Below, piece after piece: positions 4,125 to 64,000 of a stretch of 64,000 nt of DNA. Under the pieces are notes generated by a model, which was not told the DNA's origin, did no database searches, and saw only the letters and a program-made list of their open reading frames with translations. The stretch comes from Escherichia phage PE37: the sequence record NC_054929.1. One strand, 5' to 3'. How positions within the stretch are numbered: the first letter of the stretch is position 1; every line of letters begins with the position of its first letter. The position numbers and the translations under genes are program-made.

Positions 4125-4143
4125 CCAAAGATTGCATAAAGTT

Positions 4144-4186
4144 GTTTACAGTATGGTTCCTTTGTGATAGTATTATCTTACACAAA
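4144..4186 (+). promoter_or_regulatory. early promoter with stem-loop (PeSL-like)
   Basis: GTTTAC at 4144-4149, -10 TAGTAT at 4168-4173; IR TTTGTG (4161-4166) / CACAAA (4181-4186). Confidence 0.6.
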
Positions 4187-4200
4187 CAAAGGAGAATAAA

Positions 4201-8955: not shown

Positions 8956-11049
8956 ATGGAACTCATTACAGAATTATTTGACGAAGATACTACTCTTCCG
9001 ATTACAAACTTAAATCCAAAGAAGAAAATACCACAAATTTTTTCAGTTCACGTTGATGATGCAATTGAACAACCAGGCTTTCGTTTATGTACCTATACAT
9101 CTGGAGGTGATACTAATCGCGATTTAAAGATGGGAGATAAAATGATGCATATTGTTCCTTTTACATTAACTGCTAAAGGTTCAATTGCTAAATTAAAAGG
9201 TCTGGGTCCAAGCCCGATTAATTATATCAATTCAGTTTTTACTGTTGCAATGCAAACAATGCGTCAATATAAAATTGATGCCTGTATGCTTCGTATTCTT
9301 AAGTCTAAAACTGCTGGCCAAGCTCGACAAATTCAAGTTATTGCTGATAGACTTATCCGTAGTCGTTCAGGTGGTAGATACGTCCTTCTTAAGGAACTCT
9401 GGGATTACGATAAAAAGTATGCATATATTCTTATACATCGCAAAAATGTATCACTAGAAGACATTCCAGGAGTTCCGGAAATTAGTACCGAGCTCTTTAC
9501 TAAAGTTGAATCGAAGGTCGGTGATGTTTATATCAATAAAGATACTGGAGCTCAAGTAACTAAAAATGAGGCAATTGCAGCATCTATTGCGCAAGAAAAT
9601 GATAAACGTTCTGACCAAGCTGTAATCGTTAAAGTTAAAATTTCACGTAGAGCAATTGCGCAAAGTCAATCATTGGAATCTTCTAGATTTGAAAGTGAAT
9701 TATTCCAGAAGTATGAATCTACCGCAGCTAATTTCAATAAACCTGCTACCGCTCCTTTAATTCCCGAAGCAGAAGAAATGAAGCTTGGAATTAATTCGTT
9801 AGCTTCTAAAACTAAGGCAGCAAAAATTATTGCTGAAGGAACTGCGAATGAACTTCACTATGACTATAAATTCTTTTCAAAAAGTGAGGTTGATGAAGTT
9901 TCAGAAAAAATTAAAGATGTAATTTTTAACGCAATCAAAAATGAACCAACTACTTCAATAAAATGTTTAGAGAAATACGCAGCAGCTGTTAATAAATTCT
10001 TTGAAGAATATAAAGATAATTGGCTTGATAAACATAATAAAACTCGTAAAGGGCAACCAGATGAAGTCTGGGGAGAAATAACTAAAAATGCATGGAATAC
10101 AGCAAAAACTAAATTCCTCAAACGAATGATTTATAGCTTTTCTGGAATTGGTGCTGGTCCAATGATTGATATTACTATTGCCCGTGATGGTTCTAAATAT
10201 ACTCCATCACAAAAGCGAGGTATTAGAGAATATTGTGGTTCAGGATATACAGACATTAATAATCTTCTTTTAGGTCGTTACAATCCAGAACGATATGATG
10301 TAATGAGTGAAAAAGAAATTGAATCTGCTATAAATAACTTAGATTCAGCTTTTGAAAATGGTGACCGTATACCAGAAGGCATTACAGTTTATCGTGCTCA
10401 AAGTATGACTGCTCCTATATATGAAGCGTTAGTTAAAAATAAAGTGTTCTATTTCAGAAATTTTGTATCTACTTCTTTAACTCCTATTATTTTTGGACGT
10501 TTTGGAATCACACATGCTGGTATTGGTCTTTTAGAACCAGAAGCTCGCAATGAATTAACAGTTGATAAAAATGAAGAAGGAATAACTATTAATCCAAACG
10601 AAATAAGAGCGTATAAAGAAAATCCTGAATACGTTAAAGTTCAAATAGGATGGGCAATTGATGGAGCTCATAAAGTTAATGTTGTATATCCAGGAAGTCT
10701 TGGAATAGCAACAGAAGCTGAAGTTATTCTACCGCGTGGATTGATGGTCAAAGTTAATAAAATAACTGATGCTTCTAATAATGACGGAACAACATCTAAT
10801 AATACAAAACTCATTCAAGCTGAAGTTATGACCACGGAAGAGCTCACCGAATCGGTAATCTATGATGGAGACCATTTAATGGAAACTGGTGAATTGGTTG
10901 CAATGACAGGTGATACTGAAATAGAAGACAGAGTTGACTTTGCATCATTTGTTTCATCAAATGTTAAACAGAAAGTCGAATCATCTCTTGGAATTATTGC
11001 GTCTTGCATAGATATTACAAACATGCCTTACAAGTTCGTTCAAGGATAA
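8956..11049 (+). CDS. alt: Alt ADP-ribosyltransferase (virion-packaged)
   Basis: N-terminus MELITELFD; R (YRAQ), STS and EAE motifs of the R-S-E ADP-ribosyltransferase fold; late promoter TATAAATA upstream. Confidence 0.9.
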   Translation: MELITELFDEDTTLPITNLNPKKKIPQIFSVHVDDAIEQPGFRLCTYTSGGDTNRDLKMGDKMMHIVPFTLTAKGSIAKLKGLGPSPINYINSVFTVAMQTMRQYKIDACMLRILKSKTAGQARQIQVIADRLIRSRSGGRYVLLKELWDYDKKYAYILIHRKNVSLEDIPGVPEISTELFTKVESKVGDVYINKDTGAQVTKNEAIAASIAQENDKRSDQAVIVKVKISRRAIAQSQSLESSRFESELFQKYESTAANFNKPATAPLIPEAEEMKLGINSLASKTKAAKIIAEGTANELHYDYKFFSKSEVDEVSEKIKDVIFNAIKNEPTTSIKCLEKYAAAVNKFFEEYKDNWLDKHNKTRKGQPDEVWGEITKNAWNTAKTKFLKRMIYSFSGIGAGPMIDITIARDGSKYTPSQKRGIREYCGSGYTDINNLLLGRYNPERYDVMSEKEIESAINNLDSAFENGDRIPEGITVYRAQSMTAPIYEALVKNKVFYFRNFVSTSLTPIIFGRFGITHAGIGLLEPEARNELTVDKNEEGITINPNEIRAYKENPEYVKVQIGWAIDGAHKVNVVYPGSLGIATEAEVILPRGLMVKVNKITDASNNDGTTSNNTKLIQAEVMTTEELTESVIYDGDHLMETGELVAMTGDTEIEDRVDFASFVSSNVKQKVESSLGIIASCIDITNMPYKFVQG

Positions 11050-11052
11050 ATC

Positions 11053-13110
11053 ATGGAACTTATTACAGAATTATTTGACGGCGCTTCGGCGCCGGTTGTT
11101 AACTTAAATCCTAAGCATAAAATACCACAAATTTTTGCTATTCAAGCCGGCGAAGAAAGCGTGCTTCCTGGATTTAGATTTTGTACATACACCTCTGGTG
11201 GTGATACGAATAAAAACGTTAAGCCAGGCGATAAAATGATGCATATCGTAATGATAGGTGTTAATGAGAAATTATCGTTAGTTAAGCTTAAAAACTTGGG
11301 TGGAAATCCAATTGGTGTCATTAATGCGGTTTTTGATACTGCTCTTCAAACAATGAAACAGTATAAAATTGATGCATGTTTATTCCGCGTACTAAAAAGT
11401 AAAACAAATGGCGCAGCTCGTCAAATGCAAGTTATTGCTGACCGTTTAGTACGTACTAAAGGAGCAGGTCGATATGTTCTTTTAAAGGAAATCTGGGATT
11501 ATGATAAAAAGTATGCATATATTATGGTTTACCGTAAAAATGCCAATTTAGAAGACATTCCAGGTGTACCTCCTATTTCAACTGAGTTATTCACAAAAGT
11601 TGAATCAAAGGTTGGTGATGTTTATGTAGACGTTAAAACAGGTAATGCTGTTCCTAAAGCTGTTGCTGTTGCCGCTTCTATTGCTTTAGAAAATGATAAG
11701 CGCACGGATCAAGCTGTTATTCAGAAAACTAAAATTAGTCGTCGATTAGCAGCACAAGCTCAATATTCTACTGTCGATGCTTCACTTCAGGGTGATAGCT
11801 TCGCCGCTAAGAAATATCAAGAGTTTGAATCTAAAGTTCCGGTATATAAAGCAGAAGGACCAATGAACTCTGGCGTTATTCAGATTGGTTCAAACTTCAG
11901 CAAAGGAGCTATCGGTGGTATGAGAAGTGCTTCTCGTTTTAAATCTAATGATTATGAACTAGAAAGTTTCCGAAATCATATTGCATTAGCCCATGCACGT
12001 TTACGCGATCCATCTATCAAGCTGCAGAGCGATACATCATATCAAGGTTCCCAGGAATATTTAAAGAATAAAGACTTCTTTAATTACAAAACTGATAAAA
12101 TTTTAAGCGATCTTGCTGATATTAATATTTCTAATAGTTTTGATGTTATTAAGAAAATTATCAATGATTTAGTTAAAGGTTCTAAAGCTACACCAGATGA
12201 AAAGACAGCTATTATTCAATTTGTAATGAATGGAATTTATAAATTAATTGATGAATCCGCTGCTCAGGCGTATGAATATGCAAGCACTGAAGTAACTCCA
12301 AAAGGATTAACTCAGGCTGAGTCCGATGTAATTGAAGATTATTGTGCAGATTCATATGTTGAAATGAACTCGTTCCTCTTGGGTAAACCAGATTCTACCC
12401 GTGAAGAATACATGGAACGAGCTATTAAACACATCGAGACAATGGATTCTGCCTTTGCCAAAGGATCAGTTCTTCCTCCAGGAACTACGCTTTATCGTGG
12501 ACAAGAAGTTACCTTTAAAACTTTACGTCATAATATTGAAAATAAAATGTTCTACTTCAAGAACTTCGTATCCACATCGCTTAAACCAAATATCTTCGGT
12601 GAGCATGGTAAAAACTATATGGCTCTAGATGATTCCGGTGCAGTATTTTCTGGTGAAGGAGAAGGTTCCGTTGATGCTGAAGATTTAATGCATATGGGTA
12701 GTCATTCTGCTTATGCGAATGAAGATGCTGAAACTAGCGTGGGTATGGTAATAAAAGGAGCTGAGCGAATTAAAGTTATCGTTCCAGGTCATTTATCAGG
12801 ATTTCCATCAGAAGCTGAAGTTATTCTACCGCGTGGAATTTTGCTGAAGATTAATAAAGTGAGTACTTACTTTATGAAAGAAACTGCTTATAACAAGTAT
12901 CTAATCGAAGGTACAATCGTTCCTCCTTCTGAACAATTAGAAGAATCAGTATATGATGGCGACCATCTAATGGAAACTGGTGAAGTTCGTCCAATGGCTG
13001 GATTTAATCAATTCCTTGTAGAAGAATCAAAAGAAGAGGAAAACGAAGTTTCTCAAATCTTAGCTTCTTTGGTTAACATCAACGGAATGTCTAAAAAGTT
13101 CAAGATGTAG
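11053..13110 (+). CDS. Alt-like ADP-ribosyltransferase paralog
   Basis: 685 aa; same MELITELFD N-terminus, conserved YRGQ/STS/EAEVILPRG motifs, divergent middle. Confidence 0.85.
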   Translation: MELITELFDGASAPVVNLNPKHKIPQIFAIQAGEESVLPGFRFCTYTSGGDTNKNVKPGDKMMHIVMIGVNEKLSLVKLKNLGGNPIGVINAVFDTALQTMKQYKIDACLFRVLKSKTNGAARQMQVIADRLVRTKGAGRYVLLKEIWDYDKKYAYIMVYRKNANLEDIPGVPPISTELFTKVESKVGDVYVDVKTGNAVPKAVAVAASIALENDKRTDQAVIQKTKISRRLAAQAQYSTVDASLQGDSFAAKKYQEFESKVPVYKAEGPMNSGVIQIGSNFSKGAIGGMRSASRFKSNDYELESFRNHIALAHARLRDPSIKLQSDTSYQGSQEYLKNKDFFNYKTDKILSDLADINISNSFDVIKKIINDLVKGSKATPDEKTAIIQFVMNGIYKLIDESAAQAYEYASTEVTPKGLTQAESDVIEDYCADSYVEMNSFLLGKPDSTREEYMERAIKHIETMDSAFAKGSVLPPGTTLYRGQEVTFKTLRHNIENKMFYFKNFVSTSLKPNIFGEHGKNYMALDDSGAVFSGEGEGSVDAEDLMHMGSHSAYANEDAETSVGMVIKGAERIKVIVPGHLSGFPSEAEVILPRGILLKINKVSTYFMKETAYNKYLIEGTIVPPSEQLEESVYDGDHLMETGEVRPMAGFNQFLVEESKEEENEVSQILASLVNINGMSKKFKM

Positions 13111-22016: not shown

Positions 22017-23527
22017 TATAAATTAACTGTTTTCATTACGTAATTAAATTTTTCATCTGCGTAGCGCTGAATACGATCAATGCCGTGTTTTAAAAGATAG
22101 TTCAAATGAACGTATTTCTTTTTCGTATTAGCAGATTTTGGCTTGACGCCCGCGTCATCTATGAGGTCCCAGACTGTTGCGATTGTTTTAGAACCATGCT
22201 TACGTAATACACGACCGATTGTTTGTAATACAATGATTTTTGATTTAACACCGTGCGCTAAAACAACGTGATGCAGATTTTTAACTGAAATACCAGTAGA
22301 AAATACACCATAACTAGCTACTATAATTATTCCTTTACCGTTTTCAGCTAGGGTTTTCATTACGTTGCGTGTTTCGGTATCAACTTCCCCTGATACGTAA
22401 TAAACTTTATCGTATTCATTTTTAATTAAATCGAAAATAGCTTTACCGTGCGATACGTGTTTAAACATGACAAAAGCGTTTTCATCTTTTTGTGCAAGTT
22501 TAATAGCTAATTTAGCGATCCACTTATTTCTTTTACTGAGCCCAGTAATAATTTTTATTTCTTCTTGGTAAGTTTTTCCCTTTAATTTAGTAGTGAACTC
22601 ATCAGGATAGCGAAGAAAAATACTATTAATTTTTAACTCAGTTACTTGTCCATCTTCCATTAATTTAGAAGTCGTTACTGGCTTAAATATTTCACCAAAC
22701 ATTCCAACATACTGCATGATATTAGCTTTGCCATCGCGCAATGAACCGGACAAACCAAATTTAAACATACAGTTATTTAAACCTGATATGATAGATGAAA
22801 TACTTTTTCCTGTAGCAAGATGGCATTCATCATTCATCATCATTCCAAACTGTGAGAACCATTCTTTCGGTTGTTTTACTACAGTTTGCCATGTACCAAC
22901 AACGACTGGTGCATCATTTTTATATTTATCATCTTTTGATGCTCCACCACCGATTTTCTTTATCATTGCATGACTGAATAAACGATAGTCAACAAAGTCA
23001 TCAGCCATCTGAGTTGTCAGAGCAGTTGTTGGAACAATGATAAGAATTTTACCTTCATAATTTTCCAAATAATACCGCGCAAGCAAAGCTTGAATTAAAG
23101 ATTTACCAGCGGATGTTGGAAGATTAAGAATTCTACGACGATTAACTAATCCTTCGAACACTGCATCTTTTTGATACCAGTGTGGTTCAATTCTTTTATT
23201 TCCTGAATAGATTTCTAATTTAGAAAGCCATTCATCAAAATCTTTTCTTGATAATTCTTCTTTTTCGTTAATTTGTGGGTCAATCCAGGCTTTATAGCCA
23301 AAGTTATCACAGAACTTTTTAATTTGCCCGACTAAGCCGAATGGAAGAAGACGATTATAATCTAAAAGACGGATTCGTCCATCCCAGTTGCCATATCTGA
23401 AGCGAGGATTAAAACGATACCCATCAGCTTCAAAGCTAAAGAAATCACGGAGTTCATGAAATGTACTTTCTTCACAATCAATTCTCACGTGACTAAAATC
23501 ATAAAAATGTACTTTAATGTCAGTCAT
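22016..23527 (-). CDS. uvsW: UvsW SF2 DNA/RNA helicase
   Basis: 503 aa; Walker A PTSAGKS and DECH box; late promoter at 23557-23564. Confidence 0.9.
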   Translation of the reverse strand: MTDIKVHFYDFSHVRIDCEESTFHELRDFFSFEADGYRFNPRFRYGNWDGRIRLLDYNRLLPFGLVGQIKKFCDNFGYKAWIDPQINEKEELSRKDFDEWLSKLEIYSGNKRIEPHWYQKDAVFEGLVNRRRILNLPTSAGKSLIQALLARYYLENYEGKILIIVPTTALTTQMADDFVDYRLFSHAMIKKIGGGASKDDKYKNDAPVVVGTWQTVVKQPKEWFSQFGMMMNDECHLATGKSISSIISGLNNCMFKFGLSGSLRDGKANIMQYVGMFGEIFKPVTTSKLMEDGQVTELKINSIFLRYPDEFTTKLKGKTYQEEIKIITGLSKRNKWIAKLAIKLAQKDENAFVMFKHVSHGKAIFDLIKNEYDKVYYVSGEVDTETRNVMKTLAENGKGIIIVASYGVFSTGISVKNLHHVVLAHGVKSKIIVLQTIGRVLRKHGSKTIATVWDLIDDAGVKPKSANTKKKYVHLNYLLKHGIDRIQRYADEKFNYVMKTVNL

Positions 23528-23556
23528 GTCTAAATACCATGTAATAAATATATCTA

Positions 23557-27011: not shown

Positions 27012-28295
27012 TTATTCATCAACGATAATTTTTGGTAATTTAACACCTAATAAAACAGACAAATCTGAACGACCAGCCATTTTATCCATGTCTCCACCAT
27101 CAATTATTCTTGCTTCTTTTTCATCTTTTGCTACAGTGTAAGGATTTGCAGATAAAGCATATCTAACCAATAAACCGATAGATGGTTGTAAGCTTTCTGG
27201 ATCAACTACAACTTTAAATGCACCTACATGTTCAGGGTCATCTAAGTCAAGACCTTCTGTATACGGAGCATAGAAAATTGATCCAACAATTTCTTTTTCA
27301 CCGATATTTTCTACTACACCAACGATTACATAATCTAATGGACTGTTAGTATCGCAATAAAGCGGTAAACCATTAGCTAAGAACCCGTAGGCATTTTGTG
27401 AAAGATATTTGTCATCTTCTGGTTTATGTTTTAACCAACCTGATGCAGCAAGAATCGCAGCGGCACGAGCTGAAGCAACACAGAACGTTGCAGTATAAGT
27501 TGATTCTTTTTGGATATGCGAAACCATTTCACACACCATTCGGTATAATGAACGACCAGCTTCAGGTGCAGATGCATAACTCAAATCAATGAATCCGGTA
27601 TCAGTAATTCCTGTAACTTTATAGCGTTTTGATACTGTAATCAAAGACTGTAGAATATCTTTATTAATTTCATCTGCCATTTCAGTTGCAAGCAAATCTT
27701 CCAAGAAATTAGGAGCATCGAATCCATTTGCTTCTAAATCTTGTGCTAATTCAACTGTGATACCAGTTTTAAGTTTACGAGATTTAACCGCGGTTTGCCA
27801 TTTATTAATCTGGAATCTAGCATCAGCAATTTCGCTATCAGAGCTTTCAAATTTGCTCGTTGACGCTGCGTCAGAAAATAGACGAACCTTTAAAAGAACA
27901 ATTGCAATCTGAAGAGCTAATTCTAAATCGCTTTCTTCAATATCAGCAAATGGTGTATCTTCTAATACTTTATAAACGATATTATTATATTTGAATAAAT
28001 CGCCTTTATTGAGAGTTAATTTAGACTCTTCTGTTAATTCTGTGATTTGTTCTCGGTCTACATACCCAGCTTCGCCAGCGTAAGTAGCACCAGTTTTAAA
28101 CGTAAATTCATTATCTGGGTTAAGGTATTTGATACCATAAAAAGCAGCAACAGGTTGATTAGTTCTTTGCGTTGCTACAATGTCAGAATATATTAATTTA
28201 GTGGTAGCGCGAGTCAAAGCAACGAGATTTGGGCGACCGATTGAGTTGCTATTCGTTGTGGTTGATTCGCGCAGAAGTTCGTTGATTTTAGCCAT
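27012..28295 (-). CDS. 24: capsid vertex protein
   Basis: 427 aa; gp23 paralog; late promoter at 28323-28330. Confidence 0.9.
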   Translation of the reverse strand: MAKINELLRESTTTNSNSIGRPNLVALTRATTKLIYSDIVATQRTNQPVAAFYGIKYLNPDNEFTFKTGATYAGEAGYVDREQITELTEESKLTLNKGDLFKYNNIVYKVLEDTPFADIEESDLELALQIAIVLLKVRLFSDAASTSKFESSDSEIADARFQINKWQTAVKSRKLKTGITVELAQDLEANGFDAPNFLEDLLATEMADEINKDILQSLITVSKRYKVTGITDTGFIDLSYASAPEAGRSLYRMVCEMVSHIQKESTYTATFCVASARAAAILAASGWLKHKPEDDKYLSQNAYGFLANGLPLYCDTNSPLDYVIVGVVENIGEKEIVGSIFYAPYTEGLDLDDPEHVGAFKVVVDPESLQPSIGLLVRYALSANPYTVAKDEKEARIIDGGDMDKMAGRSDLSVLLGVKLPKIIVDE

Positions 28296-28322
28296 TGCGC
28301 TTTCCTTTTGGTTTATATGATT

Positions 28323-28330
28323 TATTTATA
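28323..28330 (-). promoter_or_regulatory. late promoter TATAAATA (gene 24)
   Basis: exact 8-mer on minus strand between gene 23 terminator and gene 24 ATG. Confidence 0.7.
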
Positions 28331-28346
28331 CCATAAAAACAACTAA

Positions 28347-28364
28347 AGGGACCCGAAGGTCCCT
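28347..28364 (-). terminator. terminator after gene 23
   Basis: AGGGACC-CGAA-GGTCCCT; T-rich tract on minus strand, then gene 24 late promoter. Confidence 0.7.
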
Positions 28365-28378
28365 TAAATCGTCAAAGA

Positions 28379-53780: not shown

Positions 53781-54074
53781 CTATTTAATGAATACTTTAG
53801 ATGATGCCTGAGCCACAGTATCACCGCATGATATTGGATCAGCCATTTGAACAGCTTTCTTTCCAGTGACATATACCTTAGAAGTTCTAGGTTGTGTCAC
53901 TCCGCCATGTGTTTCATATGGCTTTTTAATTTCTGTATGTTCTGTAATTGGATCGCCTGCTACTAGAACAGCAATTCCTCCAGTGAATACTTTACTTTGT
54001 GTAGCATTCACAACTGTTGGAGGCCACGCTTCATGGCCAGCAGTAACACACTTATCATAACTTAATCCTGACAT
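53781..54074 (-). CDS. 5.4: PAAR-repeat spike-tip protein
   Basis: 97 aa; Gly/Val-rich repeats; position downstream of gene 5. Confidence 0.8.
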
Positions 54075-54629
54075 TTATGGCCTCTCATACACGTAGCTTC
54101 TCAGTTTATTAGCCCAACGACTCCAATTTCCAACTATAGTTTTAGTATAATTTTTAACGAGAGTTTTTCTTACTGGAGCAGGAGGATCTGTTGGTTCAGT
54201 AGTATCAGAAGATGACCTAGAATTACTGCCAGAACCCCCAGATTCACTTTGTTCTTGGTAGTCATATATTAATGTTACTTCATAAGTGAATGTCTTCTGG
54301 AGATTTTGAGGAGCTTTCCACAAATACAACTGAGTATCAGAATCAGTAGGAAGTTCTTCCCATGAAGCAGCAGTTTTAAATTCATCGCCTAAACGATATT
54401 TCAACGCGTCATTTCCGAAACCAAATACAGATTCATATGTTCCATATAAACGATTTTCTTCTACTAAAACCCCAGGAGTTTCTTCGTAACTAGTTATATT
54501 TATAGATACTAACGTTTCACCCGTTTCTAATTGAGCGGTAAAGGTGACGTCGATAGAAGAACCTTCCATGGATTCTCCTAAATCAGCGCTCATTGGAAGT
54601 ATATTAGCCAATGTCAATCCTCGATCCAT
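54075..54629 (-). CDS. hypothetical protein (gp5.1-like by position)
   Basis: Track start 54632 is TTG; ATG at 54629; overlaps gene 5 3' end. Confidence 0.6.
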
Positions 54630-59641: not shown

Positions 59642-60338
<697 letters not shown>

Positions 60339-60350
60339 TTTCATAAAGTT

Positions 60351-60389
60351 GTTTACATACTGATGAGGTAGTGATACTATTACCTCATC
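60351..60389 (+). promoter_or_regulatory. early promoter with stem-loop (PeSL-like)
   Basis: GTTTAC at 60351-60356, TGaTACTAT -10 at 60375-60380; IR GATGAGGTA (60362-60370) / TACCTCATC (60381-60389). Confidence 0.65.
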
Positions 60390-60410
60390 AAAATTAATTA
60401 GGAAAATAAA

Positions 60411-60695
60411 ATGAAAACTTATCAAGAATTCACTTCAACGACTAACGCTTCTACTTTGACTGAAGCGACCCTTACTTCTGAAGTTATTAAAGCAAACAAA
60501 GGACGTGAAGGTAAACCGATGATTAGCCTGGTTGATGGCGAAGAAATCAAAGGTACTGTTTACCTAGGTGATGGGTGGTCTGCTAAAAAGGATGGTGCTA
60601 CAATCGTTATCTCTCCTGCTGAAGAAACTGCTTTGTTTAAAGCCAAGCATATTTCAGTAGCTCAGCTTAAAATTATTGCTAAAAATCTTTTGTAA
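60411..60695 (+). CDS. internal-protein candidate with capsid targeting signal
   Basis: N-terminus MKTYQEF...LTE-A matches CTS and prohead-protease L-x-E site pattern of T4 internal proteins. Confidence 0.6.
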   Translation: MKTYQEFTSTTNASTLTEATLTSEVIKANKGREGKPMISLVDGEEIKGTVYLGDGWSAKKDGATIVISPAEETALFKAKHISVAQLKIIAKNLL

Positions 60696-60713
60696 TAAAT
60701 TTTTCACAAAGTT

Positions 60714-60751
60714 GTTTACATAGGGTTTTAGTTGTGATACTATTACCCTAT
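60714..60751 (+). promoter_or_regulatory. early promoter with stem-loop (PeSL-like)
   Basis: GTTTAC at 60714-60719, TGaTACTAT -10 at 60738-60743; IR ATAGGGT (60720-60726) / ACCCTAT (60745-60751). Confidence 0.65.
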
Positions 60752-60771
60752 CAACTACTGAGGAGAATAAA

Positions 60772-60957
60772 ATGAAACGCTGTGAATTAATTCGAAATGT
60801 TGCTATTGCAATTTCTGCTTCCGCTTTTAGTTTTTCAATGTTTGTTGGATTTATATGCGGATTATTGACTACAGCAGAAAATGTTTTTTCACTTGTAGTA
60901 GCATTTTTAATTAGTTTAATTGCTATCGTTATGGATAAAATTTCTAAAGGTGAATAG
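60772..60957 (+). CDS. small two-helix membrane protein (61 aa)
   Basis: two hydrophobic stretches of about 20 aa; follows early promoter cassette. Confidence 0.5.
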   Translation: MKRCELIRNVAIAISASAFSFSMFVGFICGLLTTAENVFSLVVAFLISLIAIVMDKISKGE

Positions 60958-60958
60958 A

Positions 60959-61339
60959 ATGTATAAAGTGTACGCGGATTATCAGGCTAATCCATCTGAA
61001 AAGCCAGATTGCCAAATTGGATGGGCTCATGATACCCTGCTTGAAGCAGTAGATGCTGCTCAAAAATTAGGATATAAATATGTAGAGATTGTTCAACCGA
61101 CAGGAAAAGTTATTACTCTTGAAGAGTTCAATAATATTAAACCGAACTTTTTACTTTTTGCAGGTGATAATTATTATCCTCGCGGTGGATATGCTGATTT
61201 AATCGCGAAAGCCGCTACCGAAGATGAACTCCGTGACATTATCAAAGAAAATGAGAACAAACCAATGTATGGTTCTAATCGCTTTGATTGGTGGCAAATC
61301 GTAAATGCCCACACTCATACTATTGTTGATGAAGGCTGA
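60959..61339 (+). CDS. hypothetical protein (126 aa)
   Basis: ATG at 60959 immediately after previous stop; track start 60920 overlaps upstream gene. Confidence 0.5.
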   Translation: MYKVYADYQANPSEKPDCQIGWAHDTLLEAVDAAQKLGYKYVEIVQPTGKVITLEEFNNIKPNFLLFAGDNYYPRGGYADLIAKAATEDELRDIIKENENKPMYGSNRFDWWQIVNAHTHTIVDEG

Positions 61340-61341
61340 TA

Positions 61342-61629
61342 ATGATTCTTTATGCGAAAGTATCGTCCATTGAAAATGGATATAAATATGATCAAGACGC
61401 GGCTAAAGCCTTGATTGATGATTATGGCGTTTTAACATGTTTTGAAGTTGAAAAGGTTTACATTGACCGTTCATCTTCTCAAGTTAAATTAGTAAAGGAA
61501 GACCGTAAATTTAATACAGTAAATTTTGATTTCTTTATTGAAACGGAAAAAGGTCCTCTTGAATATGATATTTTCAAGAATCCTTTGGGTCTTGAATGCA
61601 TCGTAAATATGTATTATCATAAATGGTAA
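61342..61629 (+). CDS. hypothetical protein (95 aa)
   Basis: ATG 3 nt after previous stop. Confidence 0.5.
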   Translation: MILYAKVSSIENGYKYDQDAAKALIDDYGVLTCFEVEKVYIDRSSSQVKLVKEDRKFNTVNFDFFIETEKGPLEYDIFKNPLGLECIVNMYYHKW

Positions 61630-61632
61630 ATA

Positions 61633-61657
61633 TGCTTTAAGAATTATTTGTTATTAT
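61633..61657 (+). promoter_or_regulatory. MotA-dependent middle promoter candidate (tRNA cluster)
   Basis: MotA box TGCTTTA at 61633-61639, 12-nt spacer, TATTAT at 61652-61657; 29 nt identical to the gene 31 promoter copy. Confidence 0.55.
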
Positions 61658-61726
61658 TAACTCATATCGCATTGATTAATACCCTCTATCATCAAGGGTT
61701 CTTTCCTGAGAGCCTTTGTTAATAAT

Positions 61727-61799
61727 TGGGAATTAGCCAAGTTGGTAAGGCACTGGATTTTGATTCCAGGATGCAAAGGTTCGAGTCCTTTATTCCCAG
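61727..61799 (+). tRNA. tRNA-Gln (anticodon UUG)
   Basis: cloverleaf by eye: acceptor TGGGAAT/ATTCCCA, anticodon stem CTGGA/TCCAG, loop TTTTGAT, T-loop TTCGAGT. Confidence 0.85.
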
Positions 61800-61800
61800 C

Positions 61801-61887
61801 GCGAGAATGGTCAAATTGGTAAAGGCACAGCACTTAAAATGCTGCGGAATGATTTCCTTGTGGGTTCGAGTCCCACTTCTCGCACCA
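61801..61887 (+). tRNA. tRNA-Leu (anticodon UAA), type II with long variable arm
   Basis: acceptor GCGAGAA/TTCTCGC, anticodon loop CTTAAAA, T-loop TTCGAGT, encoded CCA. Confidence 0.85.
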
Positions 61888-61892
61888 AATTT

Positions 61893-61966
<74 letters not shown>

Positions 61967-61976
61967 ATTTAATTTA

Positions 61977-62050
61977 CTCCGTGTAGCTCAGTTTGGTAGA
62001 GCGCCTGATTTGGGATCAGGAGGTCCAAGGTTCAAATCCTTGTATGGAGA
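61977..62050 (+). tRNA. tRNA-Pro (anticodon UGG)
   Basis: anticodon stem CCTGA/TCAGG, loop TTTGGGA, T-loop TTCAAAT; acceptor has G-U pairs; no encoded CCA. Confidence 0.8.
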
Positions 62051-62052
62051 CT

Positions 62053-62142
62053 GGAGGCGTGGCAGAGTGGTTTAATGCACCGGTCTTGAAAACCGGCAGT
62101 CGCTCCGGCGACTCATAGGTTCAAATCCTATCGCCTCCGCCA
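62053..62142 (+). tRNA. tRNA-Ser (anticodon UGA), type II
   Basis: acceptor GGAGGCG/CGCCTCC, anticodon stem CCGGT/ACCGG, loop CTTGAAA, long variable arm, encoded CCA. Confidence 0.85.
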
Positions 62143-62147
62143 GTTTT

Positions 62148-62223
62148 GCTGATTTAGCTCAGTAGGTAGAGCAACTCACTTGTAATGAGAAGGTCGGCGG
62201 TTCGATTCCGTCAATCAGCACCA
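62148..62223 (+). tRNA. tRNA-Thr (anticodon UGU)
   Basis: acceptor GCTGATT/AATCAGC, anticodon loop CTTGTAA, T-loop TTCGATT, encoded CCA. Confidence 0.85.
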
Positions 62224-62224
62224 A

Positions 62225-62299
62225 GGCCCTGTAGCTGGAAGGTTCAAGCAAGCGACTCATAATCGCCAGATGGTGGTTCAATTCCACCCAGGGCCACCA
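62225..62299 (+). tRNA. tRNA with CAU anticodon (Met or lysidine-type Ile)
   Basis: acceptor GGCCCTG/CAGGGCC, anticodon loop CTCATAA, T-loop TTCAATT, encoded CCA. Confidence 0.8.
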
Positions 62300-62308
62300 A
62301 ATTAATTT

Positions 62309-62395
62309 GGGGAGTTATCCCGTAGAGGTAGCGGTGTGGACTGTAAATCCATTGTCATTGCGACTCGGGTGGTTCGACTCCATCACTCCCCACCA
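62309..62395 (+). tRNA. tRNA-Tyr (anticodon GUA), type II
   Basis: acceptor GGGGAGT/ACTCCCC, anticodon loop CTGTAAA, variable-arm hairpin, T-loop TTCGACT, encoded CCA; D-arm atypical. Confidence 0.75.
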
Positions 62396-62399
62396 ATTT

Positions 62400-62474
62400 G
62401 GATGTGTAGCTCAATGGCAGAGCGATCGCCTGTTAAGCGATTGGTTATAGGTTCGAATCCTATCACGTCCGCCA
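62400..62474 (+). tRNA. tRNA-Asn (anticodon GUU)
   Basis: acceptor GGATGTG/CACGTCC, D-stem GCTC/GAGC, anticodon stem ATCGC/GCGAT, loop CTGTTAA, T-loop TTCGAAT, encoded CCA. Confidence 0.88.
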
Positions 62475-62478
62475 AATC

Positions 62479-62554
62479 CGAGGCATAGCTCAGAAGGAAG
62501 AGCAAGGACCTTCTAAGTCCTAGGTCGTAGGTTCGATCCCTACTGCCTCGACCA
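62479..62554 (+). tRNA. tRNA-Arg (anticodon UCU)
   Basis: acceptor CGAGGCA/TGCCTCG, D-stem GCTC/GAGC, anticodon stem AGGAC/GTCCT, loop CTTCTAA, T-loop TTCGATC, encoded CCA. Confidence 0.88.
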
Positions 62555-62570
62555 ATTAAGTGAGGAAAAT

Positions 62571-62921
62571 ATGAAAGGTAATGTTTATTTAGTAGTTCAT
62601 GATTTAACATTTTATTTTAATCACAATGACACGGTTATTTCTGAACGTGTAATTAATTTGCTTTATCAACACGCGGATTATGTTTATGTCGAAAACGAAT
62701 ATGGTCATTGGCAATTTCTCAAAAATCGTTCATTTGGCTTAGATGGTTACGAATACTTTGAACGTAAAGACCTTTTAGATAAAATTTCGTTATCTACACA
62801 ATATCAAAATCATAAGTCTTTACATAAATGTCGGCTAATTCGAAATGCTGAATCTGCTTATGAAGCAATTGATTTATGGCGTTTACGCCGTGAACAAATT
62901 GATGCTTTAAAAGAATATTAA
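62571..62921 (+). CDS. hypothetical protein (116 aa) inside the tRNA transcription unit
   Basis: ATG 17 nt after tRNA-Arg 3' end with GAGGAAAA RBS. Confidence 0.5.
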   Translation: MKGNVYLVVHDLTFYFNHNDTVISERVINLLYQHADYVYVENEYGHWQFLKNRSFGLDGYEYFERKDLLDKISLSTQYQNHKSLHKCRLIRNAESAYEAIDLWRLRREQIDALKEY

Positions 62922-63089
62922 GAAACCGGGTCGCTACCGGTAAGTCGTCGGACTGATGTTCCCTGTTTAAGGACTGGCATTAATAAATCTTTATGTTTTG
63001 TTAATGTCCTCTTATATCACAGCAGAAACGGCGCACCGAATTATCGATTCGAGGAAATATCTTTGCCGTAAGCCGAGTAGCGTTTTTGA

Positions 63090-63184
63090 CGGAACGTTCG
63101 GATATGGTCGAGATATGGCCTTTTAAAAATATTGAGTAGCGTCAACTGCTTAATAACCGGGTTCGAATCCCGGCGTTTCGTACA
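63090..63184 (+). ncRNA. tRNA-like stable RNA candidate
   Basis: 7-bp acceptor-like helix (63090-63096 with 63174-63180) closing a canonical T-arm (CCGGG-TTCGAAT-CCCGG, 63157-63173); no clean D or anticodon arm; terminator at 63236-63260. Confidence 0.35.
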
Positions 63185-63235
63185 AACACTTGCCTTAGCA
63201 GGTGGAACCCCGACAAGGTTGCCGCAAGGCTTAGA

Positions 63236-63260
63236 CCCGACCGAAAGGTTGGGGCTTTTT
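63236..63260 (+). terminator. intrinsic terminator closing the tRNA/stable-RNA unit
   Basis: CCCGACC-GAAA-GGTTGGG followed by GCTTTTT. Confidence 0.7.
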
Positions 63261-63262
63261 GG

Positions 63263-63270
63263 TATAAATA
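63263..63270 (+). promoter_or_regulatory. late promoter TATAAATA (CTS protein at 63311)
   Basis: exact 8-mer directly after terminator, 41 nt upstream of ATG. Confidence 0.6.
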
Positions 63271-63310
63271 TAGTAGTATATTAAATCCACGAATTAAAAC
63301 AGGAAATAAG

Positions 63311-63784
63311 ATGAAATCATATACTCAATTTTTAAATGAAGCGGTGTTAAATGAAGCATCTAGCACCGAAATTCAAGCTGTCGCAAAAGCAGCCATTGCA
63401 GCGGGTAAATATTCTTACAAAGATGCTTCTGATGAATCGCGATTCCAGTTTGCACGCGACATGAAAGCGGAAGGATTTACGGGAAATGCAGTTAGTATGG
63501 CCTGGAAAAGTTTAGTTGCTACTGGCGCTGCTTTTGCAAAGGCTTCGGGTAAACCTGCTCCTAAAGCAGATCCTAAAGTCGCACAAGAGAAAAATATTGT
63601 TAAAGGAATTATCTCCAAATATGAAGCTATCCTTAAAGAGCTTTTAGTAATCAAAACTGAAGGCCAAAAACTAGCTCGTGCTTATAGTTTCAAAGATAAC
63701 CCACATGCTCACTCTCTTGAGTATGTTGAAGACATCCAAAAAATTATTAAAGACCGCATTTGGTCTGCTAAACAAATCAAATAA
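63311..63784 (+). CDS. internal-protein candidate with capsid targeting signal
   Basis: N-terminus MKSYTQFLNEAVLNEA (CTS-like with L-x-E sites); late promoter at 63263-63270; terminator downstream. Confidence 0.55.
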   Translation: MKSYTQFLNEAVLNEASSTEIQAVAKAAIAAGKYSYKDASDESRFQFARDMKAEGFTGNAVSMAWKSLVATGAAFAKASGKPAPKADPKVAQEKNIVKGIISKYEAILKELLVIKTEGQKLARAYSFKDNPHAHSLEYVEDIQKIIKDRIWSAKQIK

Positions 63785-63792
63785 CATTCTTA

Positions 63793-63819
63793 GCCCCGAC
63801 CAAAAGGTTGGGGCTTTTT
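63793..63819 (+). terminator. intrinsic terminator (near-duplicate of the 63236 terminator)
   Basis: GCCCCGACC-AAAA-GGTTGGGGC followed by TTTTT. Confidence 0.7.
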
Positions 63820-63953
63820 GGTATCTAGGCCTTTCCAGGCCTCTCTAGACATCATTTAGTTTCTACCCTTTATAATATATTATCCTATCCTTTGATTTCC
63901 CCTCCCTGCCCTAGAATTCCCCAAAACTTTTTAAAAATTTTTTTCACAAAACG

Positions 63954-63983
63954 GTTTACATCCTTGTCCTTCCATGGTACTAT
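63954..63983 (+). promoter_or_regulatory. early promoter (same consensus; stem-loop not resolvable, window ends)
   Basis: GTTTAC at 63954-63959, TGgTACTAT -10 at 63978-63983; same upstream TTTCACAAA and downstream ATCAACTACTG as the 60714 copy. Confidence 0.55.
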
Positions 63984-64000
63984 ACAACTATCAACTACTG

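Follow-up and report, generated by a model that had tools for sequence, protein, structure and literature searches.

Promoter-hairpin cassettes around the internal protein I gene of Escherichia phage PE37 compared with the known elements of the T-even internal-protein locus

The internal protein (IP) genes of T-even phages are reportedly flanked by conserved regulatory sequences of about 70 bp, described by Repoila, Tetart, Bouet and Krisch (1994, EMBO J 13:4181). Here we compare that system with the right end of a 64,000-nucleotide (nt) stretch of Escherichia phage PE37 (NC_054929.1), hereafter the window, in which an earlier note had seen, at 60351-64000, an IP/tRNA locus built from repeated cassettes of promoter, stem-loop and ribosome-binding site (RBS). 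PeSL-like sequences at T-even IP loci are attributed to Repoila et al. 1994 by Arbiol 2010 (PMC2839356) and Comeau 2014 (PMC4122927). A PeSL, or promoter-early stem-loop, consists of an AT-rich region, -35 and -10 boxes, a stem-loop between the boxes or overlapping the -10, and a Shine-Dalgarno (SD) sequence with ATG at the 3' end (PMC2839356), and the T4/PST consensus is given as TTTACW-N17-TAYWAT (PMC4122927). RB49 PeSL stem-loops terminate about like rrnB T1 in a reporter, and PeSL-mediated mini-circles were shown by inverse PCR in RB49 and phi1 (PMC2839356). The IPs themselves carry a capsid-targeting leader and enter the host with the injected DNA, and Ip1, Ip2 and Ip3 inhibit GmrSD type IV restriction enzymes, a different one in each case (PMC12373910).

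The window is a segment of a Tequatrovirus (T4-like) genome, 94.6% syntenic with T4 overall in a genome comparison, and its part 59800-64000 matches hundreds of phage records at 94-96% identity. Because of this T4-like synteny, together with the PF11634 match of ipI and the Acb1 match of 57B, we identified the locus as the T4-type IP locus. On the + strand the order is gene 1, 57A, 57B, cassette 1, ipI, cassette 2 and trna.4-trna.3-trna.2, followed by ten tRNAs, the open reading frame (ORF) ORF116, rnaD, rnaC, a terminator, ORF157, a second terminator copy and a promoter cut by the window end (Table 1). We conclude that cassettes 1 and 2 are very probably the known PeSL-like cassettes of the T-even IP locus, which provide expression signals for each IP gene and at the same time sites of exchange. 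The cassette system of the window is thus already known, and the window holds its simplest, T4-like version.

All three early-promoter -35 elements lie exactly where the earlier note had put them, at 60351, 60714 and 63954, each reading GTTTACA followed at 17-nt spacing by TG(A/G)TACTAT; the core TTTACA-17-TACTAT with TG extension (60352, 60715 and 63955), preceded by TTTCAYAAAGTT, marks all three as early promoters. A repeat search grouped 60339, 60702 and 63942 into a single 53-nt family, copy 2 being 81% and copy 3 60% identical to copy 1. The 20-mer TTTCAYAAAGTTGTTTACAT, with up to 3 mismatches, has 4 matches in the window against 0.03 expected, and the 30-nt promoter pattern has 5 against 0.07. 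The upstream motif was said to be shared, but copy 3 reads TTTCACAAAACGGTTTACA (AACGGTTTACA), with 3 mismatches to GTTGTTTACA. Likewise, a leader is shared, over 12 nt (14 with the preceding CT), but ATCAACTACTGAGGAG sits at 60750-60765 and not at 60744-60759, and the second full copy of it that was claimed for the window end falls away: the window shows 11 nt there, ending after ATCAACTACTG, and 11 of 11 relatives that show this promoter continue with ATACAG, not AGGAG. The +1 offset was inferred from the T4 feature Pe133295 relative to the promoter-pattern site 133331 (36 nt past the G of GTTTAC), and since this offset is applied here, ATCAACTACTG begins exactly at the predicted +1 of copies 2 (60750) and 3 (63990).

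The distinguishing mark of copies 1 and 2 is the hairpin. Folding found none in copy 3 (z-score, z, +0.45), and for this reason we excluded copy 3 from the hairpin-cassette family, so that the arrangement of promoter, stem-loop and RBS proposed for three copies is complete in the first two and lacks the stem-loop in the third. Copy 3 is the conserved early promoter of gene e.8, of generic T4 type, and relatives extend it as ...ATCAACTACTGATACAG...GGAGAATGAAATG MDNYGELF, which is e.8. Cassette 2 serves the transcription unit trna.4-trna.3-trna.2-tRNA as its early promoter, and this promoter is also present in T4, at 73572.

The evidence for exchange comes from the relatives. The slot between 57B and trna.4 holds one to five different IP genes over 13 annotated relatives: IPI alone in the window, T4, Kha5h and G157lw, Ip5 in Sf24, Ip9 in BYEP01, Ip5 plus a 77-aa IP in T6, U115 and UGKSEcP1, IpI plus Ip7 or a 108-aa IP plus IpI in two Mosigviruses, IPI-Ip9-Ip7-Ip8 in KIT06, Ip5-Ip9-Ip7-Ip8 in RB15, and a duplicated Ip5-IPI block plus Ip8 in CM8. 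This differing IP content agrees with the view of the earlier note that the 57B-to-tRNA interval is the plastic cargo region of T-even phages, and the synteny comparison that it called for did not return a conserved and collinear interval. In Tequatrovirus a cassette lies 5' of every IP gene, and 60339-61726 is covered to at least 80% in one piece by 187 of 683 matching phage records. Homology to the window always spans 57B and cassette 1 and breaks off where the conserved leader codons finish, 20-34 nt inside the IP gene (60430/60444); it restarts either where cassette 2 begins (60702/60709) or on the -10 of that cassette (60731/60734), and the junctions lie inside the elements that border inserted, deleted or replaced genes. 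Moreover, the cassettes are mosaic. One hairpin, ATAGGGT...ACCCTAT, occurs with three leaders: B (CTACTGAGGAG) upstream of trna.4 in the window and of Ip9 in RB15 and KIT06, A (AAAATTAATTAGGAAA) upstream of the CM8 IPI gene, and C upstream of the second T6 IP gene; hairpin classes are freely combined with three leader classes and varied upstream flanks, and crossovers inside cassettes are therefore required. Both the breakpoint pattern and the cassette mosaicism are plain in these genomes. In addition, the final codons of Ip5 repeat those of 57B, and the hairpin core GGGTAGTAGTGTGATACTATTACCCTATCAA is common to two unlinked loci, the frd.2 promoter of T4 (NC_000866, about 146143) and the trna.4 cassette of KIT06 (L009 4649), which suggests that cassette sequences travel between distant accessory regions.

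Two irregular slots were seen. CM8 (L006, 2769-4360) has a tandem Ip5-IPI-[C-terminal 46% of 57B]-Ip5-IPI, in which the duplication junction joins the cassette leader ATCAAAACAAACACTCA to mid-57B and not cassette to cassette, with an assembly artefact possible. In KIT06 (L009, 4422-4550) the Ip8 homologue is split into a 42-aa ORF and a remainder matching 58% of Ip8, likely a frameshift or pseudogene.

Some of the evidence weighs against this role of the cassettes, and much of it concerns how far they differ from ordinary early promoters. We scanned the assembled T4 genome with the early-promoter pattern, which 33 minus-strand sites fit, one of them labelled Pe133295 in the T4 record. Copy 3 is one of a set of near-identical promoters, ttttcacaaaacNGTTTACA...TGGTACTATacaactatcaactact, with T4 members at 27080, 53943, 55384, 70696 (e.8), 146875, 163673 (motA) and 167086. 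The upstream motif and the leader thus recur at no fewer than seven early promoters over the T4 genome and are not specific to this locus; therefore they are general early-promoter consensus and no sign that copy 3 duplicates copy 2. ATCAACTACTGA, the sole leader part in copy 3, is the +1 to +12 stretch common to many T4 early promoters. A large part of the repeat is accordingly consensus present genome-wide. The hairpins are not peculiar to IP genes either, since about 9-11 of the 33 T4 sites (motB, dexA, ipII, e.7, trna.4, ipI, 30.7, cd.3 and frd.2) have a hairpin across the -10 with z < -3, and -10 hairpins are also present at 38 of the 81 promoter-like, non-IP sites of the IMG/VR loci; we therefore rejected IP-specificity, and in T4 these hairpins are enriched in accessory regions. 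Further, the T-even elements are described as based on T4 early promoters with stem-loops that are 'weaker, more AT-rich' (PMC2839356), breakpoints between unrelated genes are partly unavoidable, and this genome has one cassette-bracketed gene, the same as in T4, which leaves no exchange demonstrable for the window. Finally, of 36 IMG/VR loci around 57B nearly all have IP-like ORFs behind this gene. In more distant T4-like genera the IP genes are often directly contiguous with 57B or with one another, lack an intergenic cassette and are still variable, as at L019, L024, L028, L030, L033, L035, L038 and L040-L045, where the first IP-like ORF lies at or overlaps the 57B stop and the IP genes adjoin; the promoter pattern used on these loci was T4-specific, and abutting genes leave no space for a cassette anyway.

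Two more T4-type early promoters were observed in the window. One lies in a further unit of promoter, hairpin and RBS at 4132-4200, before the 30.8 homologue and 3' of a terminator, with a 9-bp hairpin running from the -10 region into the leader and an RBS context GGAGAATAAAATGAAA as in cassette 2. The other, the fifth, at 1126-1155, corresponds to T4 Pe133295 (cd.3), where a strong -10 hairpin is present in T4.

The comparison with T4 bears on the same question. The earlier note had expected divergence from T4 here, and indeed the final 4-kb bin has the lowest syntenic coverage (0.65 versus 0.73-1.00 elsewhere), but none of the edges of the T4 differences falls on a promoter cassette: they coincide with a gene start, a point within a gene, tRNA genes or the duplicated terminator. 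The first window-only segment, 60962-61156, is the replaced N-terminal half of trna.3, which has no nucleotide homology to T4, T6, U115 or KIT06 and is 97-98% identical to Kha5h, G157lw, CM8 and Sf24; its edge is a within-gene mosaic joint with no cassette. The second, 62245-62920, has tRNA-Tyr, tRNA-Asn, tRNA-Arg and ORF116 in place of the 3' part of tRNA-Ile, segB, tRNA-Arg and the start of rnaD in T4, so T4 has eight tRNAs with segB between Ile and Arg, whereas the window has ten and no segB, adding Tyr(GTA) and Asn(GTT) between Ile2(CAT) and Arg. The third, 63266-63789, corresponds to the ORF157 module, whose two ends coincide precisely with a 36-nt direct repeat of the rnaC terminator. 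Differences of other relatives (a 171-aa ORF after trna.2, tRNA-His, segB/HNH genes) likewise miss the promoter cassettes; where tRNA-His is present, the joint lies in similar T-arm sequences (62444-62477). The homing-endonuclease genes segE, segD, segC and segB of T4 are absent from the window (23521-23541, 28307-28368, 54073-54078 and 62244-62921), these four being the main T4-only segments in the span, and the alt region (9763-13090) is replaced in part as well.

These observations fit an explanation in which the repeats are independent instances of the early-promoter consensus with no role in shuffling, and plasticity is the work of homing endonucleases (segB, HNH) together with ordinary recombination, homologous or illegitimate, in the conserved flanks. 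The recurrence of the upstream motif and +1 region at unlinked T4 promoters, the position of all window-T4 differences away from the cassettes, the four seg genes as T4-only segments, the segB or HNH genes in tRNA-cluster variants, the mid-57B joint of CM8 and the variation of IP genes in distant genera that lack cassettes would all be expected from it. We nevertheless consider it quite unlikely, as in Tequatrovirus each IP replacement has both edges in a cassette or in leader codons, the varied combinations of cassette sub-parts need crossovers inside cassettes, the 81% identity of cassettes 1 and 2 over 53 nt includes non-consensus positions, and the mini-circles of RB49 and phi1 are experimental. 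Because distant genera vary their IP genes with no cassettes, the PeSL-like cassettes are not required for IP diversification, although they presumably help it, and the conserved leader codons may by themselves serve as an exchange site.

The hairpins were surveyed in the cassettes of the 57B-trna.4 slot of 14 genomes (the window and its 13 annotated relatives). Nearly all of them fold with the -10 at or near the loop, with folding free energies (dG) of -11 to -18 and z of -3 to -7, and folding of the e.8 promoters of these same loci, and of most of the e.6 promoters, gave no hairpin. The arms form at least five self-complementary classes, GATGAGGTA/TACCTCATC, GATGGAGA/TCTCCATC, ATAGGGT/ACCCTAT, GATAGGGTA/TACCCTATC and GGATGATGG/CTATCATCC (Mosigvirus), with an additional shifted pair GGGTAGTAG/CTATTACCC. 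With the 5' arm in at least three registers one consensus structure is impossible, and pairs were formally counted on 11 same-register cassettes: 91.6% of the cells are paired versus 32-70% with the partner slid, 3 pairs are changed on both sides, and the covariation score was reached by 1 of 500 shuffles, though a caution against this evidence is that the compared sequences are related, so that shuffle statistics overstate independence and the numbers are supportive, not proof.

Which molecule carries the structure can be judged from the strands. Of 26 unique hairpins, 23 fold better on the sense than on the antisense strand (mean difference 3.7 kcal/mol; G.U pairs 38 versus 9), and the independent one-sided changes TACCTC>TATCTC and GATAGGG>GATGGGG yield G.U pairs. 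This asymmetry favours a sense-strand RNA structure rather than a symmetric cruciform, an argument weakened, and not decisive, because the GTGATACTAT consensus forces two of the G.U pairs. The hairpin is possible only in read-through RNA from upstream, since the cassette's own transcript is predicted to start inside the 3' arm. That exclusion from its own transcript, and a repeat centre exactly on the -10 box, would suit an inverted repeat acting as DNA, either as a cruciform or as an operator-like site that throttles the promoter or is cut by T4 endonuclease VII to give a recombination hot spot; yet the one-sided changes that keep G.U pairs make an A.C mismatch on the other strand, and the arms vary by class, so a sequence-specific protein site is unlikely, and we regard action as DNA as very improbable.

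It is also unlikely, if somewhat less so than the explanation by consensus, that the hairpins are true intrinsic terminators which close each IP gene as a monocistronic unit, as reported for RB49 PeSLs. Their position 23-25 nt past the upstream stop codon and the rrnB T1-like activity of the RB49 stem-loops would suit such terminators, but neither hairpin has a U-run after it (AAAATTAATT, CAACTACTGAGG), the stems are AT-rich with G.U pairs, and the scan of this strand in the region finds only the G+C-rich terminators at 63236 and 63792. Uncalled by the terminator scan, the hairpins were rejected as canonical intrinsic terminators; the missing U-tract and the negative scan also count against the PeSL-like reading, whereas the sense-strand bias fits a role as RNA, and any terminator or attenuator activity of these hairpins is putative.

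Taken as PeSL-like cassettes, the elements would work as follows. Each is an intergenic unit of about 72-76 bp made of an AT-rich upstream element, a T4-type early promoter, an inverted repeat looping the -10, and an SD with start codon. Host sigma-70 RNA polymerase would read the promoter (GTTTACA, 17-nt spacer, TG-extended TACTAT) immediately after infection, cassette 1 driving ipI and cassette 2 driving trna.4-trna.3-trna.2 and the tRNA genes. In read-through RNA the hairpin would most likely be an attenuator or a 3'-end barrier insulating neighbouring units. Together with the capsid-targeting leader codons that open every IP gene (20-34 nt), the cassettes form near-identical direct repeats, in which homologous recombination during co-infection could insert, delete or replace whole IP genes with their own signals.

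Table 1. Features at the right end of the window (dG, folding free energy; z, z-score).
Feature	Position	Strand	Description
57B	59880-60338	+	Conserved left anchor of the IP slot; Acb1 anti-CBASS phosphodiesterase family
Cassette 1	60339-60410	+	AT-rich upstream TTTCATAAAGTT; -35 GTTTACA 60351-60357; extended -10 TGATACTAT 60372-60380
Cassette 1 hairpin	arms 60361-60373/60378-60390	+	-10 at apex; 13-bp stem, dG -17.4, z -4.05
Cassette 1 3' part		+	Predicted +1 60387; RBS AGGA 60400-60403; SD plus start codon AGGAAAATAAAATG 60400-60413
ipI	60411-60695	+	94-aa internal protein I; injected inhibitor of GmrSD type IV restriction enzyme
Cassette 2	60696-60771	+	Upstream TTTCACAAAGTT; -35 GTTTACA 60714-60720; -10 TGATACTAT 60735-60743
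Cassette 2 hairpin	arms 60720-60726/60745-60751 plus inner 4 bp (7+4 bp)	+	z -3.2; -4.7 in cross-genome folding
Cassette 2 3' part		+	Predicted +1 60750, first base of ATCAACTACTG; RBS GAGGAG 60760-60765; SD plus start GAGGAGAATAAAATG 60760-60774
trna.4	60772-60957	+	Predicted membrane protein; phrog_1692; 98% identical to T4
trna.3	60959-61339	+	phrog_1411; 57% identical to T4
trna.2	61342-61629	+	phrog_2023; 95% identical to T4
tRNA cluster	61727-62554	+	Ten genes: Gln, Leu, Gly, Pro, Ser, Thr, Ile2(CAT), Tyr, Asn, Arg; ARAGORN, Rfam
ORF116	62571-62921	+	phrog_3355; not in T4, present in many relatives
rnaD homologue	62921-63037	+	88% to T4 small stable RNA, blastn vs T4 features
rnaC homologue	63044-63182	+	98.6% to T4 small stable RNA, blastn vs T4 features
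Terminator copy 1	63230-63265	+	Stem 63236-63253 plus T-run; left copy of 36-nt direct repeat (94% identity)
Late-promoter motif TATAAATA	63263-63270	+	40 nt 5' of ORF157 start codon, directly after rnaC terminator
ORF157	63311-63784	+	Candidate internal protein, 157 aa; not in T4; phrog_2280
Terminator copy 2	63789-63824	+	Stem 63792-63815, dG -19.5, z -4.3; right copy of direct repeat bounding ORF157 module
Copy 3	63942-64000, cut by window end	+	-35 GTTTACA 63954-63960; -10 TGGTACTAT 63975-63983; predicted +1 63990

The bracketed gene and its neighbours are largely those of T4. 57B matches Pfam PF23474 (Acb1, E 2.7e-60) and has 100% aa identity to T4 57B. The product of ipI matches PF11634 (IPI_T4, covered 1-76/76, E 5e-52) and phrog_4363 (internal virion protein), is 92% aa identical to T4 IPI, and has the N-terminal capsid-targeting leader MKTYQEF...TLTE/A (slash, cleavage) with an (L/I)xE cleavage site, so that both marks of IPI membership are present; its function was assigned from PMC3012670 and PMC12373910. 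The locus had been described as built from repeated cassettes, but in this genome there is one gene, ipI, between two of them, collinear with T4 (57B-ipI-trna.4-trna.3-trna.2). Nor do the cassettes flank unrelated small ORFs, as had been supposed: the ORFs at 60772, 60959 and 61342 share one tightly packed operon behind cassette 2, and the one at 62571 has no cassette of its own. Homology searches of these cargo ORFs identified the first three as the T4 genes trna.4, trna.3 and trna.2 but gave no function for them or for 62571; for the three, Pfam, NCBIfam and PDB sequence searches had no match and PHROGs only function-less phage families, and for ORF116 PDB and NCBIfam searches had no match, Pfam and PHROGs giving a function-less phage family or nothing. 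ORF116 starts after tRNA-Arg with an RBS alone and no promoter cassette. Between the tRNA-Arg 3' end with the ORF116 leader and the 3' part of cassette 1, a weak likeness (72% over 32 nt) did not stand out from chance, and the suggestion in one record's note that ORF116 is a relative of trna.2 was rejected when the two were compared and found unrelated. Between trna.2 and tRNA-Gln, a MotA-box-like TATGCTTTA (61631-61639) lies 12 nt 5' of TATTAT (61652-61657), and the pair (61631-61657) looks like a middle-mode promoter of the tRNA cluster. The Rfam scan of the region found tRNAs only, and no Rfam family matched rnaC or rnaD.

The ORF157 module lies outside this cassette system. The T4 late-promoter motif TATAAATA follows the terminator only in genomes with ORF157 and would, indirectly, suit a protein that is packaged in the capsid, processed by the gp21 protease and injected; the edges of the ORF157 indel (63265/63789) coincide with the terminator repeat. 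The leader MKSYTQFLNE/A fits the IP-class motif MK(T/S)(Y/F)x(E/Q/K)F(I/L)xE, which in its strict form is found only in IPI and ORF157 among 566 window ORFs and only in IPI, IPII, IPIII and gp61.1 among 1580 ORFs of T4; gp61.1 (NC_000866 18966-19130, 54 aa, MKTFKEFIKED) is the sole such T4 ORF beyond the three known IP genes. ORF157 occurs in 510 phage records, all sampled copies being labelled 'hypothetical', and the homologue search gave 13 clusters, all from T4-like phages and unnamed. Its AlphaFold model is all-alpha (pLDDT 74, pTM 0.41), with no significant Foldseek match beyond its own family in PDB and BFVD, and Pfam, PHROGs, NCBIfam and PDB sequence searches gave a function-less phage family or nothing. 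The slot between rnaC and e.8 is empty in T4, T6, KIT06, BYEP01 and Sf24. In other genera, relatives of 153-205 aa with an ORF157-type leader lie 3-4 kb past 57B, and none of them has an early promoter. In the rnaC-e.8 slots of UGKSEcP1 (L005 8560-9123) and U115 (L013 8040-8603), ORF157 is followed by a second IP-like gene, ORF187 (MKTYAEFLTEA), that of U115 being preceded by a further terminator copy; ORF187-like fragments are present in the RB69 slot, and a second IP-like gene after ORF157 also in the IMG/VR loci L018, L021 and L049. IP genes have been placed in only two loci (PMC2839356, PMC12373910). Tentatively, and with somewhat less than even confidence, we propose from these sequence patterns that the rnaC-e.8 interval (63230-63824) may be a third, unrecognised IP slot, whose genes would move as modules of late promoter, gene and terminator by recombination between copies of the rnaC terminator and not through early-promoter cassettes. 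If so, ORF157 would be an injected anti-defence protein.

The IP locus is known as a hot spot of the arms race, and host range is affected by IP content. The cassettes combined with the very specific N-terminal leader give a cheap rule for mining new injected anti-defence proteins, and in the engineering of T4-like phages for therapy the cassettes offer natural 'landing pads'. In this window the cassettes are ordinary and already explained, and the ORF157 module is the sole item that might add knowledge.

Compared with known systems, the simplest relative of the three copies is the T4 early-promoter consensus, reportedly established by Liebig and Ruger in 1989 (J Mol Biol 208:517, as cited in PMC9391042), which fits all three as well as the window sites 1126 and 4144; it has no hairpin itself, and copies 1 and 2 add one. 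Integron gene cassettes are alike by analogy only, as arrays of small unrelated adaptive genes between short structured exchange repeats, and differ in that the window elements have no integrase and no attC/attI, carry their own promoter per gene, and presumably use general homologous recombination; the window elements are not a member of that class. PeSLs are closer, as composite elements in hyperplastic regions near indels that are proposed sites of homologous exchange, and TTTACW-N17-TAYWAT fits the window copies. However, the T-even IP elements were called 'analogs, not homologs' of RB49 PeSLs by the authors who described these, the T-even stems are AT-rich with no polyG/polyC, and terminator activity and mini-circles were demonstrated for RB49/phi1 and not for the T-even elements. 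The closest system is that of Repoila 1994, with the same locus, the same phage group, an early promoter and putative stem-loop flanking each IP ORF, and the N-terminal leader. The GenBank entry of that study (Z35082, RB15 Ip5-Ip9-Ip7-Ip8) aligns to the window cassettes at 82-91%, nothing essential differs, and the window represents a minimal, one-gene (ipI) array of the same system.

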